Below are positions 1,501-57,109 of a stretch of DNA of 64,000 bases, piece by piece. Numbering within the stretch: position 1 is the stretch's first letter; each line of letters opens with the position of its first letter. Under the pieces are notes generated by a model that was given only the letters and a program-made list of their open reading frames with translations, was not told the origin of the DNA and ran no database searches. The stretch is from an uncultured Methylomirabilota bacterium (lineage in GTDB: Bacteria > Methylomirabilota > Methylomirabilia > Methylomirabilales > 2-02-FULL-66-22), in the NCBI GenBank assembly GCA_963845565.1, contig CAWJSJ010000001.1:512001-576000 (forward strand), read 5' to 3'. A program made the translations under genes and the position numbers.

Positions 1501-1541
1501 GTGCGGGGCGCCCCGATCGTTCCCGGACAGAGGAGACACGG

Positions 1542-2372: not shown

Positions 2373-2397
2373 CAGCGCGCGGCGGCCTCCCGGACGC

Positions 2398-3189: not shown

Positions 3190-3214
3190 ACACCCTCCGG
3201 TGCTTGGCTATCAT
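3186..3214 (+). promoter_or_regulatory. Sigma70-type promoter, probable leaderless pheA transcript
   Basis: TTGAAC-N17-TATCAT, then 6 nt to ATG 3221; no Shine-Dalgarno. Confidence 0.6.
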
Positions 3215-3220
3215 GACGCA

Positions 3221-4318: not shown

Positions 4319-4355
4319 GCGTGGGCCGGCCGCGTCCCGACAAGGAGGTGTCGCC

Positions 4356-5459
4356 TTGAGTCGTTCGCTGGAGGAGCTCGCCTCTCCGTATCTGTCTGGT
4401 CTCATCCCCTATTCCCCCGGCAAGCCGATCGAAGAAGTAGAGCGCGAGCTCGGAATATCCGGCTCGGTGAAACTGGCGTCCAACGAAAATCCGCTGGGGC
4501 CGTCCCCCAAGGCCCTCCAGGCCATCGCCGGGGCGCTGCCGAACCTCCACCGCTATCCCGACGGCGGCGGGTACGCCTTGCGGAAGGCGCTGTCTCGTCA
4601 CTGGGACGTGCCGGCCGATTGGCTGATCCTGGGGAACGGCTCCAACGAACTCCTGGAGATGGCGGGGCGGTGCTTCCTGATGCCGGGCGACGAGGTGCTG
4701 TACGCCCGGCAGGCATTCATCGTGTACGACATGGTGGCCCAGGTGACCGGGGCGACCAAGGTGGCGATCCCGCTTGCGGACTTCGCCCACGACCTGCCCG
4801 CCATGCAGGCGGCGATCACGCCCAGGACCAAACTGGTGTTCCTGGCCAACCCGAACAACCCCACCGGAACCTGTGTGGATCCCCGGGCGCTGGAGGGGTT
4901 CCTGGCGGCCGTGCCGCCCGAGGTGATCGTGGTGCTGGACGAAGCCTACTACGAGTACCTTCCGCCGGAGGCGCGACCTGACGCGCTGCGGTTCGTCCGC
5001 GACGGCCGGTGGGTTCTCCTCCTGCGGACCTTTTCGAAGATTTACGGTCTGGCGGGGTTGCGCATCGGCTACGGGATCGGTCCGGCGCCGCTGGTGGCCC
5101 TCCTCAATCGGGTCCGCGAGCCGTTCAACACCAACACCCTGGCCCAGGTCGCGGCGGCGGCAGCGCTCCACGATGCCGACCACGTCGCGGCCAGTCGCGC
5201 GGCCAACGAGGCCGGCCGCGCGTTCCTGACCGGGCAGTGCCGGGGCATGGGACTGGCCGTGGTTCCCAGCGTCGCGAATTTTCTGCTGGTGGACACCGGA
5301 CGGCCGGGGGGGCAGGTAACGGACGCATTGCTCCGGCACGGCGTGATCGTTCGTCCGGTGGCCGGCTATGGATTCGCCACGCACCTGCGCATCACCATCG
5401 GGACGGCGACGGAGAACGAGAAGTGCGTCGGCGCATTGCGGGCCGTGTTGGGGAAATGA
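4356..5459 (+). CDS. hisC: Histidinol-phosphate aminotransferase
   Basis: YSPGKPIEE, KLASNENPLG, ANPNNPTG, DEAY, RTFSKIYGLAGLRIGY; AAGGAGG RBS with TTG start. Confidence 0.95.
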   Translation: MSRSLEELASPYLSGLIPYSPGKPIEEVERELGISGSVKLASNENPLGPSPKALQAIAGALPNLHRYPDGGGYALRKALSRHWDVPADWLILGNGSNELLEMAGRCFLMPGDEVLYARQAFIVYDMVAQVTGATKVAIPLADFAHDLPAMQAAITPRTKLVFLANPNNPTGTCVDPRALEGFLAAVPPEVIVVLDEAYYEYLPPEARPDALRFVRDGRWVLLLRTFSKIYGLAGLRIGYGIGPAPLVALLNRVREPFNTNTLAQVAAAAALHDADHVAASRAANEAGRAFLTGQCRGMGLAVVPSVANFLLVDTGRPGGQVTDALLRHGVIVRPVAGYGFATHLRITIGTATENEKCVGALRAVLGK

Positions 5460-5466
5460 GGGGTCG

Positions 5467-6372
5467 GTGTCCATTCCGCGCTCTGTATCCCAGGACGTGC
5501 CACCGGGGGCGCCTCTCTTTCGACAGATGACCATCGTGGGCGTCGGGCTGATCGGCGGCAGCTTGGCGCTGGCGGCGCGACGGGCCGGGGCGGTGCAGAC
5601 GGTGGTTGGTGTCGGGCGCAGCCCGGCAAACCGCGAAGTGGCATTGGTCCGGGGCCTGGTCGATCGCGCGACCGACGACCTGTCGTCCGGGGTACGGGAT
5701 GCCGACCTCGTCGTCTTGGCGGTTCCCGTCCGCGAGATTGTGCGCCTGTTGCCGGGGGTGGCGCGTGCGACCGGTCCGGCCTGCGTGGTGACTGACGTGG
5801 GCAGCGTGAAAGGGCCGATCCTGACAGCGGGCGACGAGGCATTTCCGGACGGTCGGTTCGTGGCGGGGCATCCGATCGCAGGCAAGGAACAATCGGGACC
5901 GGCTGCCGCCAGGGCGGACCTCTTTCACGATGCGAACTGGCTCCTGACGCCCGGGGAGCGGACGCAGGCGGGGGCTGTGGAACGTGTCGAGGCGCTGTGT
6001 CGGGCCGCCGGGGCGCGGGCGGTTCGGATGGGCGCGGGCTGGCACGACGAGGTGTTCGCCACCGTCAGTCATCTGCCGCACCTCGTCGCCTATGCCCTGA
6101 TGGATGCCGTGCTGGGCACCGAGCGGGGCGCTGAGCGCATTCGCTTCTCCGCGGGCGGCCTCCGCGACTTCACCCGGGTGGCGGGAAGCGATCCGGCCAT
6201 GTGGCGTGACATTTTTCTGATGAATCGGGAGCCGGTGCTCCGGGTGCTGGCGGAATACCAGCGGGCCTTGGGGCGGCTGGCAGCCGCCATTCGCGACGGC
6301 GACGGGGAGCAGTTGGAGGCGCGCTTGCTCCAGGCTCGGGTCGCGCGGGAGGGACTCGTCCATCGCTCATGA
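5467..6372 (+). CDS. tyrA: Prephenate/arogenate dehydrogenase
   Basis: GVGLIGGS, TDVGSVKG, GHPIAGKE, SHLPH, GGLRDFTRVA..DPAMWRDI; start uncertain. Confidence 0.93.
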   Translation: MSIPRSVSQDVPPGAPLFRQMTIVGVGLIGGSLALAARRAGAVQTVVGVGRSPANREVALVRGLVDRATDDLSSGVRDADLVVLAVPVREIVRLLPGVARATGPACVVTDVGSVKGPILTAGDEAFPDGRFVAGHPIAGKEQSGPAAARADLFHDANWLLTPGERTQAGAVERVEALCRAAGARAVRMGAGWHDEVFATVSHLPHLVAYALMDAVLGTERGAERIRFSAGGLRDFTRVAGSDPAMWRDIFLMNREPVLRVLAEYQRALGRLAAAIRDGDGEQLEARLLQARVAREGLVHRS

Positions 6373-6376
6373 AATC

Positions 6377-7519
6377 GTGACGCGACGCGGGCCGGAGACG
6401 GCCCTTCTGGTCGGTGTGGTTCGCCACCGACAGCCGCGATGGGAAGCCGAGGACTCGCTCGTCGAGTTGGAGCAGTTGGCGCGCGCCGCGGGGGCGCGGG
6501 TGGCCGAGGCGGTGCTGCAGGATCGCGACCGGTTGGACCCACGCTACCTCATTGGAAAGGGAAAGGCGGAAGAGATCCGGGGGCGCTGCAGCGGAATCGA
6601 CGTCGTCATCCTGGACGAGGAGCTGTCCGGATCGCAGCAGCGGAATCTGGAGAAACTCCTCGGGCGCCGGGTCGTGGATCGGACCGGTCTGATCCTGGAC
6701 ATCTTTGCGCAGCGGGCGCAGACGCGAGAGGGGAAACTCCAGGTGGAGCTTGCGCAACTCGACTACCACCTGCCGCGCCTGGCCGGTGCCTGGACCCACC
6801 TCGAGCGGCTCGGCGGCGGGATCGGGACCCGGGGCCCCGGTGAGACACAACTCGAGTCCGATCGCCGGCGGGTCAAGACGCGGATGGCGAAGATCCGACG
6901 GGACCTGGAGCAAGTGCGGCGCCATCGCGCGCTTCTGCGTCGGCCGCGGCGGAAGATCCCCTTCCCCATCGTCGCCCTGGTCGGCTACACCAACGCGGGA
7001 AAATCCTCCCTGATGAACGCACTGACTCGGGCGGGCGTGGTGGTCCGGGATCAGCTGTTTGCCACGCTGGATCCGACGCTGCGCCGGCTGACCTTGCCGG
7101 GAGGCCGCGTGGCACTCCTCTCGGACACGGTCGGGTTTATCCGAAAGATCCCGCACCAACTGGTCGCCGCGTTCCAGGCCACGCTGGAAGAGGTGCAGGA
7201 AGCGGAACTCCTGCTCCACGTGGTGGACGTCAGTCATCCGCACGCGGAGTTGCAGCAGGCGGCGGTGGAGGCCGTGCTGGGCGAGCTCGGTTTGGCGGAT
7301 CGTCCCACCATTCTGGCGTACAACAAGATCGATCGGCTCGGCCAGCGACCGGATTTCCCATGGGGACCGGGAAGCGGCCGTGTGGCCATCTCGGCCAAGA
7401 CGGGCGCCGGTCTGGACGACCTGCGACGCGAGATCGTGGCCGGGCTGGACGGGCCGCGTCCGACGACGACCACCGCACCGCGCTCCCCCGATCGCGAGAG
7501 GAGCGAGGCGCTGTGCTGA
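6377..7519 (+). CDS. hflX: GTPase HflX
   Basis: LILDIFAQRA..EGKLQVELAQL, RGPGETQLE, VGYTNAGKS, LFATLD, DTVGF, NKID. Confidence 0.96.
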   Translation: MTRRGPETALLVGVVRHRQPRWEAEDSLVELEQLARAAGARVAEAVLQDRDRLDPRYLIGKGKAEEIRGRCSGIDVVILDEELSGSQQRNLEKLLGRRVVDRTGLILDIFAQRAQTREGKLQVELAQLDYHLPRLAGAWTHLERLGGGIGTRGPGETQLESDRRRVKTRMAKIRRDLEQVRRHRALLRRPRRKIPFPIVALVGYTNAGKSSLMNALTRAGVVVRDQLFATLDPTLRRLTLPGGRVALLSDTVGFIRKIPHQLVAAFQATLEEVQEAELLLHVVDVSHPHAELQQAAVEAVLGELGLADRPTILAYNKIDRLGQRPDFPWGPGSGRVAISAKTGAGLDDLRREIVAGLDGPRPTTTTAPRSPDRERSEALC

Positions 7520-8046
7520 CACTGGCGAATCGCCTGACCATTCTCCGTATCCTGATGACGCCCGCCATCACGATCCTCTTGCTGTACAGACACATGGAAG
7601 CGGCGATCGCCCTCTTCTTGCTGGCGGGGATCACGGACGGTTTGGACGGGTTCGTTGCCCGGCGTCGGGGCCAGCGGACAGCCCTGGGCATGGTCCTGGA
7701 CCCCTTGGCCGATAAGCTGTTGCTGATGTCCTCGGTGATCACCCTGACCATTCTCCGGGAGTTGCCGCGGTGGTTCACCATCATCGTGGTGAGTCGTGAT
7801 CTGATGCTCATCGGGGGCGCGGTGATCCTGTACATGTTCGTCGGGAAGGTTTCCATGCCGCCGTCGTGGCTGGGGAAATGGACGACGTGCTTTCAGATCG
7901 CGACCGTGCTGTTGGGTATGCTGGACAATCTCGTGCCCAGCCTGCGGGTCACCTTGATGCCGTGCGCGGTGATCACGACGGCCCTGACGATCGGGTCGGG
8001 CCTCGACTACGTCTATCGCGGCACCCGCCTTCTGAACGACCAGTGA
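7513..8046 (+). CDS. CDP-alcohol phosphatidyltransferase (PgsA-like)
   Basis: NRLTILR; DGLDGFVAR...G..LDPLADK signature; several TM segments. Confidence 0.9.
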   Translation: MLTLANRLTILRILMTPAITILLLYRHMEAAIALFLLAGITDGLDGFVARRRGQRTALGMVLDPLADKLLLMSSVITLTILRELPRWFTIIVVSRDLMLIGGAVILYMFVGKVSMPPSWLGKWTTCFQIATVLLGMLDNLVPSLRVTLMPCAVITTALTIGSGLDYVYRGTRLLNDQ

Positions 8047-8076
8047 TCCGCCGCACTGGCGGTTGAGGGATCTCTC

Positions 8077-9396
8077 ATGCCGATGAAGTCGCTGACGATC
8101 CAGGCAGTGGAGGCGGGTAGCCCGGCGGCGGAGGCGGGTGTGACGGCGGGTGCAACGCTGGTCAGCGTCAATGGCCAACCGATCCAGGACGCGCTGGAGC
8201 TGCGTTTCGCGGAGACGGCGAGCCGGGTCGTCCTCGTCTGGCGCGACGACGGCGGGACCGAACGCCGATCGATCATCCGGAAGCCGGATGACCTGGCGCT
8301 CGGCTTGGAGGTGGATCCCCTCAAGATGCACGCCTGCAACAACAAGTGCGCCTTCTGCTTCGCCCATCAAAACGCCCGGGGGATGCGGCGAGCCCTCTAC
8401 TTCAAAGACGACGACTACCGCTTCTCCTTTCTGAACGGCAATTTCGCCACGCTGACGAATCTGACCGAGGCGGACACCGCGCGAATCATCGCGCAGCGGC
8501 TCTCGCCGCTGTACGTCTCAGTCCACGCCACCGACTGCGCGCTTCGGCGCCAGCTGCTCGGCAATCCGAACGCACCGGACGTGCTCGGGCAGATCGCTCG
8601 ATTCGCCGCTGCCCGGATTGCCATGCACACCCAGGTGGTTCTCTGCCCGGGACTCAACGATGGTGCGCAGTTGGCCAAGACCCTGGAGGACCTGGCATCC
8701 TTCCATCCCTTCGTCGAAACCGTTGCGTTGGTACCCGTCGGGCTCACGCAGTACCGCGAGAAGCTTCCGGTGCTCCGATCGCCCGACCCAGACTACGCCC
8801 GGGCGCTCCTGCGGTGGGCCGAACCGTGGCGGCGGCGGTTCCGGCAGGACCTGGGGACACGATTCGCCTTTCCGTCCGATGAGTTCTATCTCCTGGCGGG
8901 CCGTCCCTTCCCGTCGGGGCAGAGCTATGAGGGGTATCCACAACTGGGGAACGGAGTCGGGGGGTGTCGGAAATTCTTGGATGAGTTCCGTCGGCTGACG
9001 GGCACACTTCCGGCTGCCATGGCGCCGGCGCGGTCGGCGAGTGTCGTCACCGGAACGCTCGCGGTGCCCGTGCTCGCCGATGCGGTGGCCCGTCTGAACC
9101 GGGTGCGGGGTCTCCGGGTCGATCTGATCCCGGTGGCCAACACCTTTTTTGGCGGGTCGGTCACCTGCGCCGGACTATTGACCGGGACGGACATTCGTCG
9201 AACGCTCGATCAGGAACGGGGCCGCGTCGGTGACGTCGTCCTGATTCCCTCGGTTGCCTTCAAGGACGAGGAGGATATCCTTCTCGATGACGTGACGCTC
9301 GCCACTGTAGAGGCTGGGATCGGCCGGCGGGTACTTCGGGTGGAGGCCACAGCGCGCGGGTTGGCACGGACGCTCTGCGAGGCCTTCCCGGAGTAG
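8077..9396 (+). CDS. DUF512 / radical-SAM-like Fe-S oxidoreductase with N-terminal PDZ-like domain
   Basis: CNNKCAFCF, KDDDYRFSFL.GNF.TLTN, SPLYVSVH, QVVLCPGLNDG, DEFY, YPQLGNGVG. Confidence 0.88.
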   Translation: MPMKSLTIQAVEAGSPAAEAGVTAGATLVSVNGQPIQDALELRFAETASRVVLVWRDDGGTERRSIIRKPDDLALGLEVDPLKMHACNNKCAFCFAHQNARGMRRALYFKDDDYRFSFLNGNFATLTNLTEADTARIIAQRLSPLYVSVHATDCALRRQLLGNPNAPDVLGQIARFAAARIAMHTQVVLCPGLNDGAQLAKTLEDLASFHPFVETVALVPVGLTQYREKLPVLRSPDPDYARALLRWAEPWRRRFRQDLGTRFAFPSDEFYLLAGRPFPSGQSYEGYPQLGNGVGGCRKFLDEFRRLTGTLPAAMAPARSASVVTGTLAVPVLADAVARLNRVRGLRVDLIPVANTFFGGSVTCAGLLTGTDIRRTLDQERGRVGDVVLIPSVAFKDEEDILLDDVTLATVEAGIGRRVLRVEATARGLARTLCEAFPE

Positions 9397-9727
9397 AACG
9401 ACACCGCACGTGTTGACCGTCGCGGTCGGCGATGTGCACGTTTTCCGTCGGTCGCGAATCCGCGACGCCATCCTATTCTCCTGCCTTCACGCGACCTGTG
9501 CGCTGACGAGGTTCGCGGCCGAGACGGGTCGCCAGGCGGCCAGCCGATTTTCCCCTTGACGAGGCGGGCGAACAGCATGTAATAGGCCTACGGGGCCCCA
9601 GGGTCCGCCTGAGGTCTGGTCTAACCCATCGTCTCAAGCGGTTCGCGGAGGGGTCGACCGGCCGTTTCCCGGCTCCCGGGGAATGGAACCACTCTTGCGG
9701 CCTTGACTGGAGAGAAAGGAGGGGGTC

Positions 9728-10717
9728 ATGAAAAGGAATCGCGTGGGTATTCCGCTTGCCTTACTCTTATTGGCGGTGTTCGCCGCGCCGGTGCTCGCGG
9801 TGGATATGGGCTTGATCACCGGGTCGGACAAAGGCACCTATTACCAGTTCGGCCTGAACCTGCAGGGCTTGGTCAAACAGGGGGACATCGATCTCAACGT
9901 CTATACCTCAAAAGGCTCGGTCGAGAACATCTACGCGGTCTTCCAGCGACCGGCCACACAGATGGGAATCGTGCAGTCGGATGTGCTCGCTTTTGTCTCG
10001 CGGGTGCAAACCGATCCGGTACTCAAGCGGATCGCGAAGAAGATCAAGATGGTGTTTCCGCTCTACAACGAGGAGATCCACGTGCTGGGCCGTAGCGACA
10101 TCGTGGATTTCGACGATCTGGCGGACAGGCGGGTGGCCATCGGGCGAGAAGGGAGCGGGACGTACCTGACGGCGAGGTTGCTCTTCAAGGTGTCCGAGGT
10201 GCAGCCGAAGGAGATGGTACTCATCGACACCGACGAGGCGTTGGCCGAGCTGAAGGCGGGGCGCATCGACGCCATGTTCTATGTTGCCGGGTATCCGGTC
10301 AAGTTGTTTGCGGAGGGCGTGACCGGCACCGACGGACTGGCGCTGATTCCGATCACCAACAAGAGCATCGTGGAATTCTATCCCACGGTCGAGATCCCGG
10401 CGCGGACGTACAGTTGGCAGGCCAACCCGCTGAATACGGTTGCGGTCAAAGCGGTCCTGGTGTCGTACGACTTCCGGCGGGCCGACTGCGACTACGTGGG
10501 GCGATTCTCCCAGATCCTGCAGAGCAATCTGGAATGGCTCAAGCGGAACGGCCATCCGAAGTGGAAGTTCGTCGATTTGGAGTATCCCCTGAAGGGCTGG
10601 GAGCAATACGATTGCGTCCGAAAGTACACGCAGAAGCCCGGCAAGACGACACCGACCAAGCCGAAGGCCGCCGCCAATCCAGTGCTGGACGCGATCAAGG
10701 ACATGCTGAGTGAGTGA
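9728..10717 (+). CDS. TAXI-family TRAP transporter solute-binding protein
   Basis: Signal peptide; ITGSDKGTYY, SKGSVENI, IVQSD, PLYNEEIH, GREGSGT, IDAMFYVAG. Confidence 0.88.
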   Translation: MKRNRVGIPLALLLLAVFAAPVLAVDMGLITGSDKGTYYQFGLNLQGLVKQGDIDLNVYTSKGSVENIYAVFQRPATQMGIVQSDVLAFVSRVQTDPVLKRIAKKIKMVFPLYNEEIHVLGRSDIVDFDDLADRRVAIGREGSGTYLTARLLFKVSEVQPKEMVLIDTDEALAELKAGRIDAMFYVAGYPVKLFAEGVTGTDGLALIPITNKSIVEFYPTVEIPARTYSWQANPLNTVAVKAVLVSYDFRRADCDYVGRFSQILQSNLEWLKRNGHPKWKFVDLEYPLKGWEQYDCVRKYTQKPGKTTPTKPKAAANPVLDAIKDMLSE

Positions 10718-17371: not shown

Positions 17372-18844
17372 ATGGACGGAATCGCCGGTTGCTATCGCCC
17401 GGGAGACCCCAACCTGGTCCAGAAGATCTTCCTGGCCACAGGGGCGGTACAGCATCGCGGGAAGGCGAGCGCGGGATTGGCCGTCGGGGGCACGAAGGGG
17501 ATCTACCTTCACAAGGGCATCGGTGGGATTGTGGACGTGGGGGACGAGGACATCCTGCGCATCTTCCAGGATCTGGAACCCGTCGCCGCCATCGGCAGCG
17601 TCGGTTACACCAAGAACAAGATCCCCGAGAAGCGGAACGCCGAACCGATCCTGGTCGAACCCAAAGCGAGCTCGACCTATACCGTGGTTCTCGCGATGAA
17701 CGGACGTATTCTCGAGGACGACGAGTTGCGGGCCGAGCTGGAGGACGCGTACAGCTTCAACACCGTCAATGCCACCGAAGTCGTCGGGGCCTTGCTTCAC
17801 CGCTGCGTCGAAGAGGAGGGAGCGAGCTTCGCCGCGGGCCGGAAGCTGGTGGACATCCTGCACGGGTGCGGTACGTTTTCCCTCGCTGCCCTCGTGCATG
17901 ATGGCGCCGAGACCGCACTCCTCACCCTGAACGACAGCCGGGCGTTCGAGCCGTTCTGTTTCGGTATGGTGGACGGGACGTTTCTCGCCTCGTCGGAGAG
18001 CTGTTCTCACCGCCGGCTCGGCGGGTTCCCGGAGCGCGAGTACGCCGGGGCGGAGATGACCATCTGCTCGTCGCGCGGTGTGGAGACCCAACGAGTCCGG
18101 ACGGAGACGGAAATGCCGGATGTCTTCCAGGCGGTCTACTTCGGGAACGCCGGCTCCCTCTACCGAGGGGAGGAGATCTTCCGGCTTCGCATGGGGCTCG
18201 GGCACGTGCTGGCCAAGCGGTATGGCGACACCGACGCCGATGTGATCATTCCGAACCCGGAGTCCGGGCGCGGCGTCTCCCACGGCATCGCCGAAGGGCT
18301 CGGGAAGCCGTTGCTTCCTGGGCTTGCCAAGCAGTCCCAGGCCATCCGCACCTTTCAGGAGGCGGGGCGGAGCAAGCGGATGCGGGAAGTGGCGGTCAAG
18401 TTCGCCGCCATGGACTCGGTCCTCGCCGGGCGACGCATCATCATGGGGGACGATTCCATCGTCAAAGGAAGCGTGAGCGAGGGCGGTGCGGTCTGGAGCG
18501 TCTACAACGCCGGGGCGGTAACACTGGAGTTTTGGGTTTCGTACGGCCCCATGTTTTTCCCCTCCTTCAAGGAGTGGCGCCGCGGCCGGGAGTGCCTGGA
18601 CGAGTTGGCCGTGCAGCGGGCATTCCGTGGCGACAACCCGTACGACAAGACGCCGGAGGGGATCAACGCCAAGGTGGCTGCCCTGTTGGGGGTGGATCGG
18701 GTCTGTTACAATACGTTCGAGGGCGTGAGAGCGGTCATCGGTCCGGGTTCGTACCAGGCGCTCGACGCGTCCTATCCCGTCGCGGAACGGTTTTGGCCCG
18801 CCTGGCTCAAGGAGGAAGTGGAGCACTTCAGCCACTATCGCTGA
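17372..18844 (+). CDS. Amidophosphoribosyltransferase-like protein (divergent PurF paralogue)
   Basis: AAGGAG RBS; MDGIAG, QHRGKASAG, ASSESC, IPNPESG, RTF, DDSIVKG align with PurF at 27674. Confidence 0.85.
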   Translation: MDGIAGCYRPGDPNLVQKIFLATGAVQHRGKASAGLAVGGTKGIYLHKGIGGIVDVGDEDILRIFQDLEPVAAIGSVGYTKNKIPEKRNAEPILVEPKASSTYTVVLAMNGRILEDDELRAELEDAYSFNTVNATEVVGALLHRCVEEEGASFAAGRKLVDILHGCGTFSLAALVHDGAETALLTLNDSRAFEPFCFGMVDGTFLASSESCSHRRLGGFPEREYAGAEMTICSSRGVETQRVRTETEMPDVFQAVYFGNAGSLYRGEEIFRLRMGLGHVLAKRYGDTDADVIIPNPESGRGVSHGIAEGLGKPLLPGLAKQSQAIRTFQEAGRSKRMREVAVKFAAMDSVLAGRRIIMGDDSIVKGSVSEGGAVWSVYNAGAVTLEFWVSYGPMFFPSFKEWRRGRECLDELAVQRAFRGDNPYDKTPEGINAKVAALLGVDRVCYNTFEGVRAVIGPGSYQALDASYPVAERFWPAWLKEEVEHFSHYR

Positions 18845-19154
18845 AGCCAAAGGGGGTTGTTTGACAAAGCGCGACGGCCGCGCATTCCCGATCCGCGTAC
18901 CGCGCAGGAGGGATTCATCACGAACTGATTACAACGCGCGATTCGGCGTTGCCATTCCGAGTCGCGTATAACAGAATGGACTTCAGCGAGCGCACCGGGG
19001 ATGTTCGTACCGAGCCGCCGTGCGCGGAAAGCGGAGCGGGAGCAGAACGTCTGCAGTGTGGAATCGCTCCCGAATCGATCATCGCGGGAATCCGCCGCCG
19101 TACTGCAGGCAACCTGCACCGGTCAACGGCGGTCCAAGACGATAGGTGTGAAGC

Positions 19155-20057
19155 GTGAGCACGCAGGCAGCTCAAATCTACCGGTTCGACGCGAGCGGAT
19201 GCAACGGGTGCGACGTGGAGGTGGTCGAGATCCTCGCCATTCTACCGGGCGCCGACCTCGGGTTCGAGATCGCCGAGCGGCCAGATGACGCGCAGGTCCT
19301 GATCGTGACGGGCGGGGCCAATCTCAAGTCCAAGGCGGAACTCCAGCATGCCTACGCGGCCTTGAAGGCGCCCCGATTGGTCGTTGCCGTGGGGTCGTGC
19401 GCGGCGAGCATGGGGATCTTCAAGGGCGGCTACTCCATGACCGGCCCGATCGATTCGATCATCCCTGTCGACCTATACATCACGGGGTGTCCGCCGCGGC
19501 CCCAGGTGATCCTCGGCGCCCTGGCGGAAGCCCTGCAGCTTTCGGTGGACGGCCTGGAGCCGCTCCTGCGAACGCCGGAGGGGTATCGGGGCGATCCCCA
19601 CGTCGATCGGGAGACCTGCGTCGGGTGCAGCGCGTGCGCGAACGTCTGCCCCGCGGATGCGATCGAGATCCTGGACGGCGAAGGCCAGCGGGTCGTCCGG
19701 TTCAGGCGAGAGGCCTGTGTCTTCTGCGGGACCTGTCAGGACGTCTGTCCGACCGAGTCGGTCACGTTGCGGGCCGGGGATCCGTCGTGGTATCGGGTCA
19801 AGGGCGCCTCGACGTCCGAGGCGGCGCTGCCGCTGGCCCAATGCGGCGTCTGCGGCGCCGCGTTCATGCCGGAGGCGCAGCTCGCGTGGGCGATGCGACG
19901 TGTCGAGGAGCGCCGCTCGCTGGACGCGGGCGATCGCGCGGCAATCCGGCGCAGCCTCCACGTCTGCATGGCATGCCGGCGAAGCCGGATCCCCGACGTC
20001 CGGGAGGCCAAGCGTCTCTTGACGTCGCTGGAGAAGAAGACCGCGATCGTATCGTAG
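19155..20057 (+). CDS. Group-4 [NiFe]-hydrogenase small subunit (NuoB/HycG-like) fused to NuoI/HycF-like 2x[4Fe-4S] domain
   Basis: GCNGCDVE, AVGSCA, GCPPRP; then GYRG..CVGCSACANVCP, CVFCGTCQDVCP, CGVC...CMAC. Confidence 0.9.
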   Translation: MSTQAAQIYRFDASGCNGCDVEVVEILAILPGADLGFEIAERPDDAQVLIVTGGANLKSKAELQHAYAALKAPRLVVAVGSCAASMGIFKGGYSMTGPIDSIIPVDLYITGCPPRPQVILGALAEALQLSVDGLEPLLRTPEGYRGDPHVDRETCVGCSACANVCPADAIEILDGEGQRVVRFRREACVFCGTCQDVCPTESVTLRAGDPSWYRVKGASTSEAALPLAQCGVCGAAFMPEAQLAWAMRRVEERRSLDAGDRAAIRRSLHVCMACRRSRIPDVREAKRLLTSLEKKTAIVS

Positions 20058-20131
20058 GCGATGGCCCCGGAGCATCCGGCCCCGCGCGAGCCCGCGGGAC
20101 GGGTCGGGCGCCCGGTTCGGGAGAGCGAATC

Positions 20132-20620
20132 GTGGAGTTGGGTGCAGCCAAGAATCGGGTGATCGTGTATGACGCGGGCCTGTGCACCGGGTGCCGCTAT
20201 TGCGAGATTGCCTGCGCGGTGTGGCACTGCGGTCGGATCGACGTCGGCCAATCGAGGATCCGCATCCTGTTCAACGCCGAGAACCGCACAGAGCCGTATG
20301 CGGCGGTGAACTGCCAGCACTGCGAGGAGCCGCTCTGCGCGACCGTCTGCCCGTCCGAGGCCATGCACAAGGATCGCGAGACCGGATGGGTGACCGTGAA
20401 CGCCTCGACCTGCATCGGCTGCGAGATGTGCCGGGCGGCCTGTCCGCTGGCCGTGCCCGTCTTCGACGAAGCCCAGAAGGTGGCGGTGAAGTGCGATCTG
20501 TGCCACGGGGAGCCGGAGTGCGTGAAGCACTGCTCGTCGCGGGCGTTGTGGCTCGCGCCCCGGGAGGAGGCCCTCCGCGTGAACGAACGGTTTTACCTCG
20601 GTGCAGGGGGCAATCCATGA
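20132..20620 (+). CDS. Four-cluster [4Fe-4S] electron-transfer protein (DmsB/HycB/CooF-like)
   Basis: CTGCRYCEIAC, CQHCEEPLCATVCP, CIGCEMCRAACP, KCDLC...ECVKHC; GGGAGA RBS with GTG start; ATGA overlap with next gene. Confidence 0.9.
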   Translation: MELGAAKNRVIVYDAGLCTGCRYCEIACAVWHCGRIDVGQSRIRILFNAENRTEPYAAVNCQHCEEPLCATVCPSEAMHKDRETGWVTVNASTCIGCEMCRAACPLAVPVFDEAQKVAVKCDLCHGEPECVKHCSSRALWLAPREEALRVNERFYLGAGGNP

Positions 20621-21282
20621 GCGCGGATACGGTACGGCGGCTCTTGGAGCGGCGAATCTCGGGGGCGCGGTTCACCTGCGCCGATTCGGGCGTGCGGCGG
20701 ACGGGCGTCACGCTACAGGCGGGGGAGGTCCGGGATGCCGTCCAGACGCTCTGCGCGGAGCCGGGGGCGCGATTCATGACCCTCACGGCCGTCGACCGGG
20801 GGACGGATATCGACCTCTTGTATCATATCTCCCTGCGGAGCGGCGTGGTCACCCTCCGGGTCGTGATCGCGAAGGAGACGAGCGCGATCGAGAGTATCGC
20901 GGACCTCGTTCCCGCGGCGGAGCTGGTGGAGAAAGAGGTGGCGGAGCTGTTCGGAGTGGGATTTGCAGGCCATCCGCGCGCCGCGAACCTCCTGCTGCCT
21001 GCCGACTGGCCCGTCGGCAAGCGGCCGCTGCGCAAGCCCCTCGTCGGTTCGGTTATTGCGCAGGCTCGCATCACCGCCGAGAACCTGGTGGCGAGCGGCT
21101 CCTCGATCGGCGTGGCGCGCTCCTCGATGGCCCGGCGCGAGAAGGCGGGACTGCCCAAGGTTCCGCCCTTGGTGGCGGCCGACCCGGATCGCTTGCGAGA
21201 ATTCCAGGAGTTCGTGAAGCGGACCGGCTTCGGCGAGCGGGCGGGGTTCGACTGGGCGAAGGGAAAACTCCGGTACAAGTAG
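20617..21282 (+). CDS. NuoC/EchD-like subunit with HdrC-like C-terminal arm
   Basis: RFMTLTAVD, LLYH, SIADLVPAAELVEKEVAELFGVGFAGHP, LLLPADWP...PLRK, then an extension of about 80 aa. Confidence 0.85.
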   Translation: MSADTVRRLLERRISGARFTCADSGVRRTGVTLQAGEVRDAVQTLCAEPGARFMTLTAVDRGTDIDLLYHISLRSGVVTLRVVIAKETSAIESIADLVPAAELVEKEVAELFGVGFAGHPRAANLLLPADWPVGKRPLRKPLVGSVIAQARITAENLVASGSSIGVARSSMARREKAGLPKVPPLVAADPDRLREFQEFVKRTGFGERAGFDWAKGKLRYK

Positions 21283-21298
21283 AGCTGCGGGGCAGGTG

Positions 21299-22174
21299 AT
21301 GAGGCGACAGGCGCTCTTCCTCGGCTGTGTACTGCCGCTCCGGTTCCCGGGCATCGAGCTGGCCGCCCGACGGGTGTTCGGCCAACTCGGGGTGCCGTGC
21401 GTGGACCTCGAAGGCTATTCATGCTGCCCCGAGCCGGTCGTCCTCGGCTTGGCCGACCCCGACATGGCCCTCGCCGTCTCGGCGCGGAACCTGGCACTGG
21501 CCGAGCGGGCGGACGCGGACCTGACGGTGATGTGCAACGGCTGCTACGAGACGCTGGCCGAGGCGGATGCCGCGCTCCGGCACGACGGCGGGGCGCACGC
21601 GCGGGTCGCGCAGCTCTTGGATGGGATCGGGACCCGTTACGAGGGAGGGGTCCGGATCAAGCACTTCGTCGAGCTCCTGCACGAGGACGTGGGGGTCGCC
21701 CGCATCGCGGAGCAGGTGACGACCCCGGTCGACGTGACGGTCGCCGTGCACTACGGGTGCCACCTCTTCCGCGAGGTCGAGCACGAGGACACCCGGCGGA
21801 AGCCCCGGATGCTGCGGGCCCTGATCGAGGCCGCGGGGGCGCGGGTGGTCGACTACGGCTTGGAAGATCTTTGCTGCGGCTTCCCGATCTCGCAGTTCGA
21901 CAAGCGCATGGCCATGCAGGAGCGCCTCCTCCCGAAGCTCCGCGCGCTGGGCGCGACGGGCGCGGAGGCGATTCTGTTCTGCTGCCCGGCCTGCCTCAAC
22001 CAGTTCGAGAGCGGGCAGGGCCCGGCGGGCGACCTGGCGGCCGACGTCCCCCGGTATCCGTGCGTGCACATCCTGGAGCTCTTGGCGCTGGCCTTCGGGA
22101 TGCGGCCGGCGGAGCTGCACCTCGACGCGCGCTTCGCGCCGTCCAGGGAATTCGTGGACTGTTTCTGGGGGTGA
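21299..22174 (+). CDS. hdrB: Heterodisulfide reductase subunit B-like protein (two CCG domains)
   Basis: LFLGC..RFPGIE, SCCP, ARNLALAE, CNGCY, HYGCH, CCG, CPAC.NQFE.GQ. Confidence 0.9.
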   Translation: MRRQALFLGCVLPLRFPGIELAARRVFGQLGVPCVDLEGYSCCPEPVVLGLADPDMALAVSARNLALAERADADLTVMCNGCYETLAEADAALRHDGGAHARVAQLLDGIGTRYEGGVRIKHFVELLHEDVGVARIAEQVTTPVDVTVAVHYGCHLFREVEHEDTRRKPRMLRALIEAAGARVVDYGLEDLCCGFPISQFDKRMAMQERLLPKLRALGATGAEAILFCCPACLNQFESGQGPAGDLAADVPRYPCVHILELLALAFGMRPAELHLDARFAPSREFVDCFWG

Positions 22175-22212
22175 GCCGCGACGCGGCGCTCCTTTCGTTT
22201 CGGATGACGGAC

Positions 22213-23298
22213 ATGACCACAACCATCACGATCGGCCCCTACCACCCGTACCTGCTCGAGCCCAGCATTGTCGACCTGCAGGTTGTCGACGGGCGCGTGG
22301 CGGACGCCACCATCACGGTGGGGTTCGTCAACCGGGCGGTCGAAGAACTGATGACGAAGAAAACCTACCGCCAGGCCGTGGTGCTGGCGGAGCACGTCTG
22401 CGGCATCTGCAGTAACGTCCACAGCCTGGCCTTCTGTCAGGCGACCGAAGAGATCCTGGGGGTCGAGATTCCGCACCGGGCCCGGTACGTTCGGACGATC
22501 GTCGTGGAGCTGGAGCGGCTGCACAGCCATTTCCTCTGCCTGGGACTCCTGGCCCACGCCCTCCATGACGGGGAGCATTTCGTCCGTATCATGGCGGAGC
22601 GGGAGGCGCTGATCCGCCTGCTCGAGCGCGTCAGCGGGAACCGGGTCCATTACGGTGTGAACGCCATCGGCGGCGTCCGGCGGGACCTGACGCCGGAACG
22701 GGCGAGCGATATCCTGGAGGTCCTGGGGCGGCTGGAATCGCTGGGCCATTTCGTGGTGGACGCCCTGGGCCCGGACGGGGCGCTGGGGAAGCGGGTCGCA
22801 GGGCAGGGGATCGTGACGGGACCCGAGGCCATCGCCCTCGGCGCGGTAGGGCCCACGCTGCGCGCCAGCGGGATCGAGAGCGACCTGCGGAAGGAGGACA
22901 GGTACGCGGCCTATCCGGACGTGACCTTCGATCTGATCGTCGAGACGGCCGGGGACGTCCGGTCCCGATTCCTGGTCCGGGCCCGGGAAACCCTGGAAAG
23001 CATCAAGATCATCCGGCAACTCTTCGACCGCCTGCCCGACGGACCGCTGACGGGCCAGGTGCGAGAGCCCAATATCAAGGAATCGCGAGAAGTCCTGGGG
23101 CGAGTCGAAGCACCACGCGGAGAGCTGGTCTATTTCATCCGCTCCAACGGCACGACCATTCCCGATCGGGTCAAGATCCGCACACCCACCTTCGCCAACA
23201 TCGCCTTCCTCCGCCGGGCGCTCACTGGAGCGCCGGTCGACGACACGCGGACCATCATCGAGAGCATCGATCCGTGCCTCTCCTGCACGGACCGGTAG
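22213..23298 (+). CDS. Group-4-type [NiFe]-hydrogenase large subunit (EchE/NuoD-like, about 361 aa)
   Basis: IGPYHP.LLEP, EHVCGICS..H, ELERLHSH, EAPRGEL, KIRTPT, DPCLSCTDR-stop; alternative ATG at 22204. Confidence 0.92.
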   Translation: MTTTITIGPYHPYLLEPSIVDLQVVDGRVADATITVGFVNRAVEELMTKKTYRQAVVLAEHVCGICSNVHSLAFCQATEEILGVEIPHRARYVRTIVVELERLHSHFLCLGLLAHALHDGEHFVRIMAEREALIRLLERVSGNRVHYGVNAIGGVRRDLTPERASDILEVLGRLESLGHFVVDALGPDGALGKRVAGQGIVTGPEAIALGAVGPTLRASGIESDLRKEDRYAAYPDVTFDLIVETAGDVRSRFLVRARETLESIKIIRQLFDRLPDGPLTGQVREPNIKESREVLGRVEAPRGELVYFIRSNGTTIPDRVKIRTPTFANIAFLRRALTGAPVDDTRTIIESIDPCLSCTDR

Positions 23299-23468
23299 CA
23301 GGCTGCTGAAAACGGCCCATCTGCTGCGTTGGCTCGCTGAGGCACTCGTTGCGGCGTACCCACAGTACGCCACTCGGCCTCGGGCACCCATCCACAGGAT
23401 GGGTCGCGCCGCCTTGCATCTGGACCTTTTTGATCAGCCTGGGCGAATATAGGAATTTCAGCAGCCAG
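23299..23468. repeat. MITE-like palindromic repeat, family 2, copy 1
   Basis: CAGGCTGCTGAAAACGGCCCATCTGCTGCGTTGG...GCCGCCTTGCATCTGGACC..TTTGA..GCCTG shared with 39892; inverted ends. Confidence 0.8.
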
Positions 23469-24965
23469 TCAGTCGGGGAGGGGGCAGCCCTCACACCGCT
23501 CCGCCTTGGGCCGAGGCGCGATGGGTCGCCGCGGCTCGGCGGGTGTCTCCGCTTTCCGGACCGGATGGATGTGCACCGGCATCCCCGCGGCGACCTCGGC
23601 GGCTTCCATGAGGGCCTCGGAGAGGGTCGGGTGAGCGTGGATGGTGACCATGAGGTCTTCCAGGGTCGCCCCCAACTGCACCGCCAGGGTGCCCTCGGCG
23701 ATCAGTTCAGAGGCGTGCGGGCCCACCATCCCAACTCCCAGGACCCGCCGGGACTCCGGACAGCTGATCACCTTGACCACGCCCTCGGTGCGCCCCATGG
23801 TCCGCGCCCGGCCCGAGGCCACGAGGGGGAAGCGGCCCACAGTGACCGGCAGGTTCTGCGCGGCCGCCTCCCGCTCGGTCAGGCCGGCCCAGGCCAGCTC
23901 GGGGTCGGTGAACACCACGGCCGGGATGGCCCGAGCCTCGAGCGCCGAGGAGTGACCTGCGATCGCTTCGGCGGCAACCTTGCCCTCGTGGCTGGCCTTG
24001 TGCGCCAGCATGGGGCCGGGGACGATGTCGCCGATGGCGTAGATGTGCGGTTCCACCGTCCGGCCCACCTCGTCCACCTCGATGAATCCGCCCCGGATGG
24101 GGCGGATGGCCGTCCGGTCCAGGCCCAGCCGATCGGTATTGGGGCGGCGCCCGACGGCGACCAGGATCTGGTCGGTTTCGAGCGTCTGCCGCTGCCCCTG
24201 CTGTTCCACGGTGGTCAAATAGCCGCTCGATCCCTGCTGGATGTCGACGACCTTGGACTCGGTCAGGATGCGCGAGAACCGTCTCTCGCAGCTCTTGACC
24301 ACCACGTCCACCAGGTCCTGGTCGGCCCCCGGGAGGAGCCGCGGGAAAAACTCGACCATCGTCACCTGCGAGCCCAGTCCGGCATAGACCAACCCCATCT
24401 CAAGGCCGATGTAGCCCCCTCCGACGACGAGCAGCCGGGGCGGGATCTCGGGGAGGCGCAGCGCCTCTGCCGAGGACCAGAGCGGGAGCGTCTGGCCCGC
24501 CGGCAGCCGGTTGATGTCCGATCCGGTGGCGAGGATGCAATGGCGGAAGCGGATCCGCGCGGATTCTGCTCCGCTCACTTCGAGGGTGCGATTGTCCAGG
24601 AATTGCGCCCAGCCGCGGACGACCGTCACGCCGCGCCGCTTGAGGAGCCCGTCGATCCCCTTGGTCAAGGTCTCGACCACGCTCCCGCTCCAGCGGCGCA
24701 ACGCCGCCGGATCCAGGGAGAGGTCCGAGAACGTGAGGCCCATCTTGCGCGCGGCGCGAGCGCTTTCCGCCAGCTCCACGACGTTGATGAGGGTCTTGGA
24801 TGGAATGCATCCTTCGATCAGGCACACACCGCCGAGTCGATCCCGCTCTTCGATGAGGACGACGTTCTTGCCGAGATCGGCGGCGCGGATGGCCGCAACG
24901 TATCCTCCGGGTCCGCCGCCGACGATGGCGACCTCTGTTTCCTCGCGCAGGTTGCCCAGGACCAT
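23469..24965 (-). CDS. lpdA: Dihydrolipoamide dehydrogenase
   Basis: GGGPGGY, GGVCLIEGCIPSK, GGGYIGLE, GPMLAHKA, HAHPTLSE; GGAGG RBS. Confidence 0.96.
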   Translation of the reverse strand: MVLGNLREETEVAIVGGGPGGYVAAIRAADLGKNVVLIEERDRLGGVCLIEGCIPSKTLINVVELAESARAARKMGLTFSDLSLDPAALRRWSGSVVETLTKGIDGLLKRRGVTVVRGWAQFLDNRTLEVSGAESARIRFRHCILATGSDINRLPAGQTLPLWSSAEALRLPEIPPRLLVVGGGYIGLEMGLVYAGLGSQVTMVEFFPRLLPGADQDLVDVVVKSCERRFSRILTESKVVDIQQGSSGYLTTVEQQGQRQTLETDQILVAVGRRPNTDRLGLDRTAIRPIRGGFIEVDEVGRTVEPHIYAIGDIVPGPMLAHKASHEGKVAAEAIAGHSSALEARAIPAVVFTDPELAWAGLTEREAAAQNLPVTVGRFPLVASGRARTMGRTEGVVKVISCPESRRVLGVGMVGPHASELIAEGTLAVQLGATLEDLMVTIHAHPTLSEALMEAAEVAAGMPVHIHPVRKAETPAEPRRPIAPRPKAERCEGCPLPD

Positions 24966-25075
24966 GTCACGAACCTCCCATTTTGACGTTCGCCAGAGCG
25001 CTGGAACGACATTCCTGTTGGATGGTCGCCCGCACGAGGCCATCGCGGGTCCTGCGAAAGACCCCGGTGAATTTC

Positions 25076-25323: not shown

Positions 25324-25436
25324 ACGCGGGAGCGTTGGCGGAAAAGAACGGGCGAGGAGAAAGAACCTGACGGGTTGCGGTAAGGGCGTCACCAACCGCG
25401 ATGCGCGAGTCATCGGACGAGAAGGAATCGGGGCAC

Positions 25437-26342
25437 ATGAGCCAGGAACTGTTGCAGATTGGAGGCGCGCCGTCTGGATCCATCCCGCGGCGCCTGCCCC
25501 CGTGGCTGCGCGCCAAGTCGGGACACTGGGAGCGCGTGCACGACATGAAGGTGCTCCTGACCGGCTCCCGCCTGCATACGGTGTGCGAAGAGGCCCGCTG
25601 TCCCAATCAGGGAGAATGTTGGACGCGTGGGACGGCCACCTTCATGCTGCTGGGCGAGATCTGCACCAGGAGCTGCGGTTTCTGCGCGGTGGCCACGGGA
25701 CGCCCGGCGCCGCCGGATGCGGAGGAGCCGCGCCACGTCGCCGAGGCCAGCCGCCGACTGGGTTTGAAGTTCGTGGTGGTGACGTCGGTGGCCCGTGACG
25801 ATCTTCCCGATGGTGGGGCGGGTCATTTCGCGGCCACGGTGCGCGCCATCCGGGGTGCCAGCCCGGGCACGGAGGTGGAGGTCCTGGTACCGGATTTCAA
25901 GGGTGACCGGGACAGCATCCGCACCGTGGTGGAGAGTCGTCCGACGGTGTTCAATCATAACCTGGAGACGGTGGAGCGGCTGACCAGGCGCGTCCGGATC
26001 CAGGCCCGATATCAGCGGTCGCTGGAGGTGCTGCGGACCGCCAAAGAGGTGGGGCAGCCTCTCACCAAGACTGGGGTCATGCTGGGGTTGGGCGAGACGG
26101 AGCCGGAAGTGCTGACGCTGCTCCGAGACGCGCGCGCCGCGGCGTGTGACATCGTGACGATCGGCCAGTACCTGCAGCCGACGAAGCAGCACCTCCCGGT
26201 CGCGGAGTTCGTGCATCCGGATCGGTTCAAGGCCTTCGAGGAGGCGGCCTACGGCCTGGGGTTCACATCCGTCTTCGCGGGGCCGCTCGTCCGGAGCTCG
26301 TACCACGCAGAGCTGGTCGCCGGGTATCCGCAGACGAAGTAG
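25437..26342 (+). CDS. lipA: Lipoyl synthase
   Basis: [38 protein letters not shown]. Confidence 0.97.
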
Positions 26343-43164: not shown

Positions 43165-43415
43165 GCGGACAGGTCCTGGGCGGTATTCGCCTGATCGATT
43201 TGTTTCAGGTAGGTGAACACCTCGTTCGCTTCCGCCTCGTCGAGTCGGCTGATCGCCATGCCCACATGGACGATGACGTAGTCGCCGACCTGCGCCTCGG
43301 GGAGGCACATCAGATTCACGTTCTTGATGATCCCGCCGAAGCTCACCTTGCCGGTGCGCTGCAGAGGGTCTTCTCCGCTGATGCTGACGAGCTGTCCTGG
43401 AACGGCCAAACACAT
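43161..43415 (-). CDS. hypC: Hydrogenase maturation chaperone HypC
   Basis: [19 protein letters not shown]. Confidence 0.96.
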
Positions 43416-43427
43416 GACGCTTACTCC

Positions 43428-43531
43428 TTAGGAGCCGTTACGAAATTACCGGTCCATTTTTTTCAATTTCGTTACGGCCCTTATGCCGTCTCAGAATTTC
43501 TCCGGTCAAGTTATTCTTTAACAACGGCTTT
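43428..43531 (-). repeat. MITE-like repeat family 1, subtype B, inserted in the hypF 3' end
   Basis: Reverse complement AAAGCCGTTGTTAAAGAATAACTTGACCGGAGAAATTCTG...TTTCGTAACGGCTCCTAA. Confidence 0.85.
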
Positions 43532-57101: not shown

Positions 57102-57109
57102 CCACCCCT

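Follow-up and report, generated by a model that had tools for sequence, protein, structure and literature searches.

The window analyzed here is a 64,000-nucleotide stretch of the genome of an uncultured Methylomirabilota (NC10) bacterium (contig CAWJSJ010000001.1, positions 512,001 to 576,000), with a G+C content of 66% and no N. Its valyl-tRNA synthetase is 83% identical to that of 'Candidatus Methylomirabilis sp.' and 74 to 76% identical to entries labelled 'candidate division NC10' and 'Methylomirabilales', which places the host in Methylomirabilota. Five consecutive genes on its forward strand (19155-23298) encode proteins of a [NiFe]-hydrogenase type and an HdrB-like disulfide reductase subunit, and the third of them is a fusion gene, in which a NuoC-like domain continues into a C-terminal arm resembling that of the methanogen protein HdrC. 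The elements of the cluster are listed below with window coordinates, strand, description in amino acids (aa), and the basis of the assignment.

19155..20057, +, NuoB/HycG-like hydrogenase small subunit (aa 16-125) fused to a HycF/NuoI-like 2x[4Fe-4S] domain (aa ~138-278), 300 aa (Pfam, NCBIfam)
20132..20620, +, four-cluster ferredoxin of the DmsB/HybA/HydN/HycB type, ~162 aa (Cys groups, NCBIfam)
20617..21036, +, NuoC/HycE-N/MbhK-like scaffold domain of the fusion protein, aa 1-140 (PF00329, AlphaFold2, Foldseek)
21037..21282, +, HdrC-type C-terminal arm of the fusion protein, aa 141-221 plus stop (profile against PDB, single-sequence match, conservation)
21296..22174, +, HdrB-like disulfide reductase subunit with two complete CCG motifs, 292 aa (Pfam CCG, TIGR03288, PDB)
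22204..23298, +, [NiFe]-hydrogenase large subunit, group-4/NuoD-like, 364 aa (Pfam, PDB, metal-site Cys)

The fusion gene and its neighbors

The open reading frame (ORF) of the fusion gene (20617-21282, +) encodes 221 aa by translation. Its N-terminal part belongs to the NuoC family: Pfam PF00329 (Complex1_30kDa) covers aa 32 to 140 with 72.7 bits, against a gathering cut-off of 22.5, and the AlphaFold2 (AF2) model, built from a 43-sequence alignment, has the NuoC fold with per-residue confidence (pLDDT) above 90 across aa 1 to 120. Among the matches listed by Foldseek for the full-length model, 50 of 50 are NuoC-type chains, either from complex I, NDH, formate hydrogenlyase (FHL), MBH, and MBS or isolated NuoC/Nqo5, including HycE (7z0s_E) and MbhK (6cfw_K); these matches are uninformative about the tail. 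The protein's C-terminal stretch reads ...KRPLRKPLVGSVIAQARITAENLVASGSS...RREKAGLPKVPPLVAADPDRLREFQEFVKRTGFGERAGFDWAKGKLRYK up to the stop codon. The tail has no cysteine, and a Pfam scan of the fusion protein returns PF00329 alone, with no Fer4 family. In public records such fusion proteins go under the names NuoC, Ni,Fe-hydrogenase III component G, mbhK, or hypothetical, and their only precomputed Pfam family is PF00329. Because these names cover NuoC, hydrogenase-3 component G, and MbhK alone, the HdrC-like arm is unlabelled there.

Assembly error does not account for the fused frame: a contig from an independent DNA run (728 nt, 20684-21411) spans the fusion junction with 1 difference and no gap, a contig from an RNA library (1148 nt, 20512-21659) spans it with 7 differences and no gap, and no insertion or deletion between independent assemblies and the window is listed within 20617-21282. 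We took ATG 20617 as the true start because the 221-aa homologues cover 100% of the query. A mechanically listed 366-aa ORF (20182-21282) was rejected as upstream read-through, an artefact of high G+C content; its first 145 codons (20182-20616) run across the ferredoxin gene in a different frame, and Pfam finds no family in them.

The gene immediately downstream, which the sequence-only reading had named hdrB, lies 13 bases past the fusion-gene stop and matches TIGR03288 (E 7.2e-72). Its protein matches Pfam CCG in two stretches (E 1.3e-24) and the PDB chains 9sfi_C (E 1.1e-62) and 5odc_B (E 3.2e-61). The CCG motif, CXnCCXnCXXC, binds non-cubane clusters, and the cysteines of both copies (C11, C43, C44, C80, C83, C155, C193, C194, C230, and C233) are invariant in 29 orthologues. 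The large subunit that follows matches Pfam Complex1_49kDa (E 3.3e-58) and NiFeSe_Hases (E 2.5e-14), and its nearest solved chains are MbhL (6cfw_L, E 3e-67) and HycE (7z0s_E, E 1.6e-54). It carries the group 4 metal-site motifs CGIC (aa 66-69, then H) and DPCLSC (aa 356-361), and the NiFe cysteines C66, C69, C358, and C361 are kept in 45 to 46 of 46 large-subunit orthologues. With hdrB between the NuoC and large-subunit genes, the cluster agrees in gene content with the HdrB-interacting group 4 hydrogenases, in which hdrB is co-located with group 4 hydrogenase genes.

Upstream of the fusion gene, the small subunit matches Pfam Oxidored_q6 (E 1.5e-22) plus Fer4 families and, in NCBIfam, the HycF-type PRK12387 (E 2.1e-26, aa 139-278) and the NuoB model PRK06411 (E 6.6e-24). 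The ferredoxin translation shows four Cys groups and matches DmsB (E 2.8e-24), HybA (3.3e-22), and HydN (3.2e-16) in NCBIfam. Its start is probably GTG 20132, where GGAGAG can be read in the DNA 7 nt upstream, and its stop overlaps the ATG of the fusion gene by 4 bases (ATGA).

The HdrC-type arm and its predicted binding to HdrB

The tail comprises 81 aa (aa 141-221, 21037-21279), with the boundaries that the sequence-only reading had drawn when it claimed an HdrC-like extension after a normal NuoC end. The claim holds: the PF00329 match runs to aa 140, and a profile of 27 bacterial and archaeal tails, searched against PDB sequences, has as its best match aa 108 to 183 (of 184) of the HdrC chain 5odc_C (E 1.3e-11). 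The next matches are 8rvu_c (8.2e-11), 8rvv_C (9.9e-11), 9sfi_E (8.5e-9), and 7bkb_C (0.013), so that the top five are all HdrC, and the following ones have E of at least 0.2. Single-sequence comparison agrees. In a phmmer search of the whole protein against PDB sequences, aa 154 to 218 align with aa 120 to 184 of HdrC 8rvu_c (E 2.4e-6) and aa 145 to 219 with aa 109 to 183 of 5odc_C (E 8e-5), while the N-terminal part matches NuoC chains. Both the phmmer and the profile alignments thus return a significant likeness to methanogen HdrC in the comparison that had been proposed, and the HdrC end pattern given in the sequence-only reading agrees with the phmmer alignment. Seven residues, E155, R174, G178, L179, G210, L218, and R219, are invariant in 43 fusion proteins from bacteria and archaea aligned across the whole tail. 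These comparisons confirm, at the level of sequence, homology between the tail and the ~76 C-terminal residues of methanogen HdrC, with a common end point.

The likeness is confined to the arm. The HdrC model of NCBIfam, TIGR03290, matches aa 146 to 207 at model positions 81 to 142 of 144 (E 9e-4), that is, over its last third only and with 19.2 bits against a whole-protein cut-off of 160. The ferredoxin domain of HdrC has two CxxCxxCxxxCP motifs, and Pfam finds no Fer4 domain of this kind in the fusion protein. Within its own genome the arm is single copy (profile E 2.8e-32, next best 0.3); TIGR03290 matches at five other places cover model positions 1 to 116, the ferredoxin part, only, and the distal arm is absent from them.

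In the AF2 model, a linker of low confidence (aa ~130-147) precedes four helices, and a short hairpin closes the arm; pLDDT is 77 to 86 over the helical tail and below 50 at aa 138 to 143 of the linker. The HdrC arm of methanogens reportedly contacts HdrB in a crystal structure of 2017. Descriptions of arm contacts in solved HdrC structures were not found in the accessible portions of PMC13518236, PMC5861303, and PMC12350162; the portion of PMC13518236 describes T79 to K98 of Methanococcus HdrC as lining a proton path and the active-site pocket at the HdrB interface.

We carried out the tail-HdrB complex prediction that the sequence-only reading had proposed, pairing HdrB (29-row alignment) with tail aa 141 to 221 (43-row alignment) in three runs and with three controls. 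The interface score ipSAE was 0.85, 0.85, and 0.84 for the tail-HdrB runs and 0.00 for each control; among reference cases, 116 of the 157 solved complexes and 2 of the 215 mismatched pairs attain the ipSAE mark, counts that apply only roughly here because we supplied our own alignments. The runs gave 116 to 119 contacts, at least 89% of them common between runs, with partner pLDDT of at least 79. The predicted interface joins tail aa 146 to 209, nearly the entire arm, with the first CCG domain of HdrB (aa 9-22 and 37-64) and with HdrB aa 107-111, 200-201, and 275-278. Invariant HdrB residues at this interface include C11, P14, R16, E21, Y41, C43, P45, D54, and R64. In the model, the conserved arm stretch REKAGLP..PP faces HdrB residues 14 to 22 and 38 to 42, beside the CC pair at 43 and 44. 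The prediction supports arm-HdrB binding as a property of the modeled pair and does not show that this copy binds.

Distribution of the arm across genomes

A scan that took one genome for each prokaryotic species yielded 71 loci. The arm is present in 59 of them (L001-L059), with a fusion ORF of 218 to 228 aa where complete, and absent from 11 relatives (L060-L063 and L065-L071) that encode a NuoC protein of 141 to 168 aa or a NuoCD fusion; L064, cut within the gene, was excluded from both counts. In 58 of the 59 arm-bearing loci hdrB lies directly downstream of the arm, and in the remaining one (L045) the contig stops 42 bases past it. By contrast, tblastn with the window proteins found no hdrB match anywhere in the 11 arm-less loci, and the arm and hdrB therefore travel together. 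A ferredoxin gene adjoins the arm gene at 57 of the 59 arm-bearing loci (the contigs of L003 and L044 begin inside the cluster), which argues that the Fe-S wire was exchanged and not simply lost. The sequence-only reading, which had the HdrC Fe-S domain lost, was thus right about the fusion protein itself, but the separate upstream gene for a four-cluster ferredoxin replaces the wire.

The order ferredoxin, NuoC-arm, HdrB, large subunit is common to the arm-bearing loci (tblastn). The small subunit gene lies upstream in the window and its two closest relatives and downstream in other loci. The window large subunit ends in ...DPCLSCTDR (23286-23298), without a C-terminal extension, and those of L001 and L002 likewise stop at CTDR; the 43 other aligned orthologues, from L005-L059, extend beyond the CTDR/CTNR motif. 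A HycI-type protease gene adjoins the cluster in L009, L016, L017, and L030.

Beyond the locus scan, a word-indexed search found ~75 clusters of ~221-aa proteins at 100% query coverage and identity down to ~40%, and a profile search for the fusion protein found 114 proteins at E up to 1e-20. A few of the matches bear names such as 'Nitrospira sp.' and 'Candidatus Cryosericum', which are MAG labels. Judged by record titles, the arm-bearing hosts are mostly Bathyarchaeia and also include Hadarchaeia, a Hodarchaeaceae member, and a Baldrarchaeum, the last two of which we take to be Asgard archaea. The bacterial loci come from Methylomirabilota (L001), an unclassified bacterium (L002), Chloroflexota (L003), and Krumholzibacteriaceae (L016). 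Near-identical cluster DNA occurs in runs of 13 studies, including wetland, sediment, freshwater, and soil metagenomes, and six rows are RNA libraries. One RNA-library contig bridges the ferredoxin end, the entire fusion gene, and the hdrB start, which is compatible with co-transcription and is no proof of it. A promoter and terminator scan of 18700-23600 gave a promoter-like site at 18949-18977, upstream of the small-subunit gene, which is not evidence of function (2 sites against 0.5 expected).

A Pfam scan of the neighboring genes found no membrane subunit beside the cluster in the window, no 19-residue Kyte-Doolittle stretch exceeds 1.6 in any of the five window proteins, and flanking ORFs of at least 90 aa in eight further loci (L008, L009, L016, L017, L018, L029, L030, and L057) include no membrane subunit. 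The group 4 membrane subunits NuoH and NuoL/Mrp, not adjacent in the window or these eight relatives, are present in L032 and in L087, a cluster with a free arm gene. In L032, from a Baldrarchaeum (2484-9837), the cluster with the NuoC-arm fusion and hdrB also has genes for NuoH, a NuoK-like protein, a separate NuoI-like ferredoxin, and a NuoL/Mrp-type antiporter of 656 aa, the last lying between those for the ferredoxin and NuoC-arm proteins; going by its genes, L032 is a membrane-bound version of the NuoC-arm family. The same Pfam scan of neighbors found no hdrA adjoining the window cluster. In the bathyarchaeal L017, an hdrA-mvhD fusion gene lies upstream of the soluble cluster (1441-3888), and mvhD, an hdrC-like gene, and a second hdrB-like gene lie downstream (8800-10636), making a link to bifurcating Hdr possible in that neighborhood.

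The arm also occurs outside NuoC. Searched against 1.84 billion representatives, the tail profile matched 87 proteins at E up to 0.001, including HdrC-like proteins and 197- to 226-aa proteins with a C-terminal arm. Pfam scans of 30 of these matches found a NuoC domain in 5 (3 of them shorter fragments) and Fer4_8 before the arm in 15. Many others are arm-only proteins of 64 to 100 aa starting M...(Y/F)PL(R/E)K. The likeness of this start to PLRK, with which the NuoC domain ends, is a hint that such genes split off from the NuoC-arm form or were fused to give it. An arm-only protein was matched in 47 of 301 Thermoproteota genomes, with 52 matches in all, 33 of them in open frames no longer than 139 aa. 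In the eight arm-only loci retrieved, hdrB is adjacent in 7 (L080 is cut by the contig end) and a ferredoxin gene in 6. Free arm genes of ~92 aa without a Pfam family (L087, 8643-8918, +; L078-L085) lie between a four-cluster ferredoxin gene and hdrB in membrane-bound hydrogenase clusters of the Ehe type from Thermoproteota. The genes of L087 run as follows.

First part: hdrA-mvhD, hdrC-like, hdrB2, Fe-S protein, sdhA-like, gcvH, ferredoxin, arm (92 aa), hdrB, nuoB
Middle: 100-aa ORF without Pfam family, antiporter, NuoCD-fused large subunit, nuoH, nuoI-like
End: 114-aa ORF without Pfam family, S9-family peptidase, lipoate-ligase C-terminal domain gene, radical-SAM gene

By its predicted genes, this layout is the published Ehe layout. 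The arm is thus free where NuoC is fused to the large subunit and fused to NuoC where NuoC is free.

A proposed hydrogenase-disulfide reductase complex

We propose, with a probability of about 0.75, that the five genes encode one soluble, flavin-free [NiFe]-hydrogenase:disulfide reductase complex in which HdrB is held by the NuoC arm. The proposal draws on the arm homology, the intact cofactor motifs of HdrB and the large subunit, the co-occurrence of arm and hdrB, the gene order, and the high-scoring predicted interface, which together suggest a single complex with direct wiring from hydrogen oxidation to disulfide reduction. In such an enzyme, the large subunit, of group 4 type, would split H2 at its NiFe site, and electrons would pass through the NuoB-like proximal cluster, the two HycF-like clusters, and the four ferredoxin clusters to HdrB. 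The outcome would be H2-dependent disulfide reduction without HdrA or flavin, with the reverse direction also possible. Past its flexible linker on NuoC, the arm would wrap the first CCG domain of HdrB and hold HdrB on the hydrogenase; arm (docking) and neighboring ferredoxin (wiring) would jointly do the job of HdrC. The N-terminal NuoC-like domains of FHL and complex I are described as cofactor-free and key determinants of assembly (in the portion available of PMC7050243), and a docking arm on NuoC therefore makes structural sense. The sequence-only reading had HdrB physically tethered to the hydrogenase; tail-HdrB binding is predicted (ipSAE 0.85) and agrees with the co-occurrence of arm and hdrB, but the tether itself has the standing of a prediction.

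Several points weigh against this proposal. HdrB scores 242.1 bits on TIGR03288, below the equivalog cut-off of 345.15, and is therefore called HdrB-like, a name that does not imply CoM-S-S-CoB as the substrate. NC10 bacteria are not known to make CoM-S-S-CoB. The HdrC region directly after the ferredoxin domain has no counterpart in the tail. Because the confidence of the AF2 linker is low, the geometry of the arm relative to the NuoC domain is undefined, and because HdrBC complexes have been solved (5odc, 8rvu, 7bkb, and 9sfi), the interface prediction may reflect likeness to them.

Hydrogenases linked to HdrB have already been predicted from genomes. The text available of PMC9723716 describes Ehd, Ehe, and Ehg as HdrB-interacting group 4 hydrogenases with an ion-antiporter subunit, membrane-bound and found in Methanomethylicia (Ehd), Culexarchaeia (Ehe), and Nezhaarchaeia (Ehg), and Drh of Methanocellales as one without an antiporter. 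Drh, the 'disulfide-reducing hydrogenase', is given as putatively membrane-associated in the part available of PMC6046458, which cites Lyu and Lu 2015. Compared by description only, Drh appears to be the closest in concept to the soluble cluster of the window: both are group-4-type [NiFe] clusters with hdrB and no ion-antiporter subunit, for which direct electron transfer from H2 to a disulfide is proposed. Drh, however, belongs to methanogenic archaea, with CoM-S-S-CoB as the presumed substrate, whereas the window is from an NC10 bacterium. Ehd, Ehe, and Ehg share with the window an hdrB gene and a four-cluster ferredoxin gene inside a group 4 cluster and the idea of H2:disulfide coupling, but include antiporter and NuoH membrane subunits. 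The Ehe-type L087 has the window's order of ferredoxin, arm, and hdrB and a large subunit 40% identical to that of the window; unlike the window, its NuoC is fused to the large subunit and its arm is a free 92-aa gene without a Pfam family. The words 'HdrC', 'NuoC', 'fused', and 'fusion' have 0 occurrences in the main text of PMC9723716, where 'HdrBC' is used and the arm is undescribed.

The HdrC proteins of HdrABC-MvhAGD and Fdh-Hdr (5odc, 8rvu, 7bkb, and 9sfi) share with the fusion protein their last ~76 residues, and the HdrB of such a system resembles that of the window (5odc_B, E 3.2e-61). Canonical HdrC, however, carries a 2x[4Fe-4S] ferredoxin domain at its N terminus and operates downstream of HdrA, a bifurcating flavoprotein, whereas the window has the arm on a cofactor-free NuoC domain and no adjoining HdrA gene. 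Like the soluble arm of Escherichia coli FHL (HycB-HycF-HycG-HycE plus FdhF; 7z0s), the window encodes HycG-, HycF-, and HycB/HydN-like modules and NuoC-like and large-subunit domains, with a second catalytic subunit plugged onto the ferredoxin end. By this analogy, the Fe-S chain would follow the FHL order. The window differs from FHL in having HdrB in place of FdhF, a HycG-HycF fusion, separate genes for NuoC and the large subunit, and no membrane subunits. A literature search, from which the originals of 2015 and 2019 and the supplements lay outside, found no description of the arm fusion, of free 92-aa arm genes, or of a bacterial soluble form. Judged from its genes, the window thus adds to the HdrB-linked group 4 hydrogenases a soluble bacterial variant with a concrete docking proposal.

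The arm could instead be an assembly or maturation aid that binds HdrB transiently, for example, for insertion of the non-cubane clusters, with mature HdrB working elsewhere, such as in a bifurcating HdrA-type complex. The flexible linker modeled by AF2 would suit such a role, some relatives (L017 and L087) have hdrA-mvhD, mvhD, hdrC-like, and second hdrB genes adjoining the cluster, and the genome itself has other HdrC-like, HdrB-like, and hydrogenase genes elsewhere. However, the homologous arm of canonical HdrC belongs to mature solved complexes, hdrB between the NuoC and large-subunit genes (58 of 59 loci) has the position of a structural subunit, and no hdrA adjoins the window cluster, and we regard this explanation as unlikely. 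A similarly small chance attaches to the idea that the window complex is only the soluble part of a larger enzyme of the Ehd/Ehe type, which would be membrane-bound, translocate ions, and have its membrane subunits encoded elsewhere in the genome. L032 shows that a membrane-bound NuoC-arm version with a NuoL/Mrp-type antiporter, NuoH, and a NuoK-like gene is known, and genes for an antiporter subunit and NuoH also belong to the Ehe-type clusters in which the arm gene is free. Yet membrane subunits are not adjacent in the window (no genome-wide search was made for orphan NuoH or NuoL genes beyond those of complex I) or in the eight other loci, and the small subunit, fused to a HycF-like domain in the window, finds in L032 a match that covers the ferredoxin half only, in a separate 182-aa ferredoxin ORF. 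That the tail is an ordinary lineage-specific extension of NuoC, with a chance or convergent likeness to HdrC and hdrB as a mere neighbor, fits database names and precomputed Pfam labels that recognize NuoC only and the C-terminal extensions that NuoC/Nqo5 proteins of complex I often have, but it is effectively refuted by sequence comparison, given a profile match across the full 76 residues to the very C terminus of HdrC with HdrC chains alone on top, the co-occurrence of arm and hdrB (hdrB present in 58 of 59 loci with the arm and in none of the 11 without it), and the search of 1.84 billion representatives, in which 15 of 22 scanned non-fusion tail matches carry the HdrC-type Fer4_8 and 6 of 22 have no Pfam family.

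Going further than the complex proposed above, we tentatively suggest that the HdrC arm is a portable HdrB adaptor on various electron-input machines and that the bacterial form is a flavin-free H2:protein-disulfide oxidoreductase, with a lipoyl-protein disulfide as a possible substrate. The adaptor would sit on the HdrC ferredoxin domain in HdrABC, stand alone as a 92-aa protein in Ehe-type enzymes, and be fused to NuoC in the soluble five-subunit enzyme, whose hosts range from archaea (Bathyarchaeia, Hadarchaeia, and Asgard archaea) to bacteria (NC10, Chloroflexota, and Krumholzibacteriota). The lipoyl proposal starts from bacterial hosts that would lack CoM-S-S-CoB; if true, H2 would be linked directly to thiol and lipoate redox chemistry. 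The window cluster is flanked by lpd and lipA, and L087 by gcvH, the lipoate-ligase domain gene, and the radical-SAM gene. In the window, the lipoyl link has only the neighbors lpd and lipA behind it, the two GcvH-like genes of the genome being on other contigs (C3 and C2), away from the cluster. It is weak because no loci other than the close relatives L001 and L002, in which lpd is also adjacent, have this synteny. The surroundings of the window cluster are as follows.

Upstream flank of the cluster, glutamine-amidotransferase-like gene (Pfam/NCBIfam)
23469-25043, -, dihydrolipoyl dehydrogenase lpd, convergent (Pfam/NCBIfam)
25401-26342, +, lipoyl synthase lipA (Pfam/NCBIfam)
42046-43413 and 43441-45900, -, hypD and hypF, [NiFe]-hydrogenase maturation, ~19 kb downstream of the cluster

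Clusters of group 4 hydrogenase and HdrB genes, proposed from archaeal genomes, would constitute a second, non-bifurcating route from H2 to disulfide. In the texts consulted for comparison, as far as they were available, the attachment of HdrB in such clusters is unexplained, and the arm offers a candidate docking element. The NuoC-arm fusion would be Rosetta-stone evidence for a physical HdrB-hydrogenase complex and puts a name to the putative docking element (aa 141-221), of which the unannotated 92-aa gene would be the equivalent part in membrane-bound versions. The soluble form is compact and present in bacteria and is therefore a practical target for expression, for structure work, and for a search for the natural disulfide.

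The genome also has several further [NiFe] large-subunit or NuoD-like, HdrC-like, and HdrB-like genes, at the following positions of contigs C1 and C2.

C1: 594126-595392, 600369-600617, 615797-615958, 623745-624974
C2: 305724-305930, 651059-651283, 1401355-1403278

On C1, a hydrogenase-like gene lies ~5 kb from a pair of HdrC-like and HdrB-like genes. Elsewhere in the window, a DUF2950 gene (54383-55288, -) and a DUF3300 gene (55811-57649, -) lie near each other.

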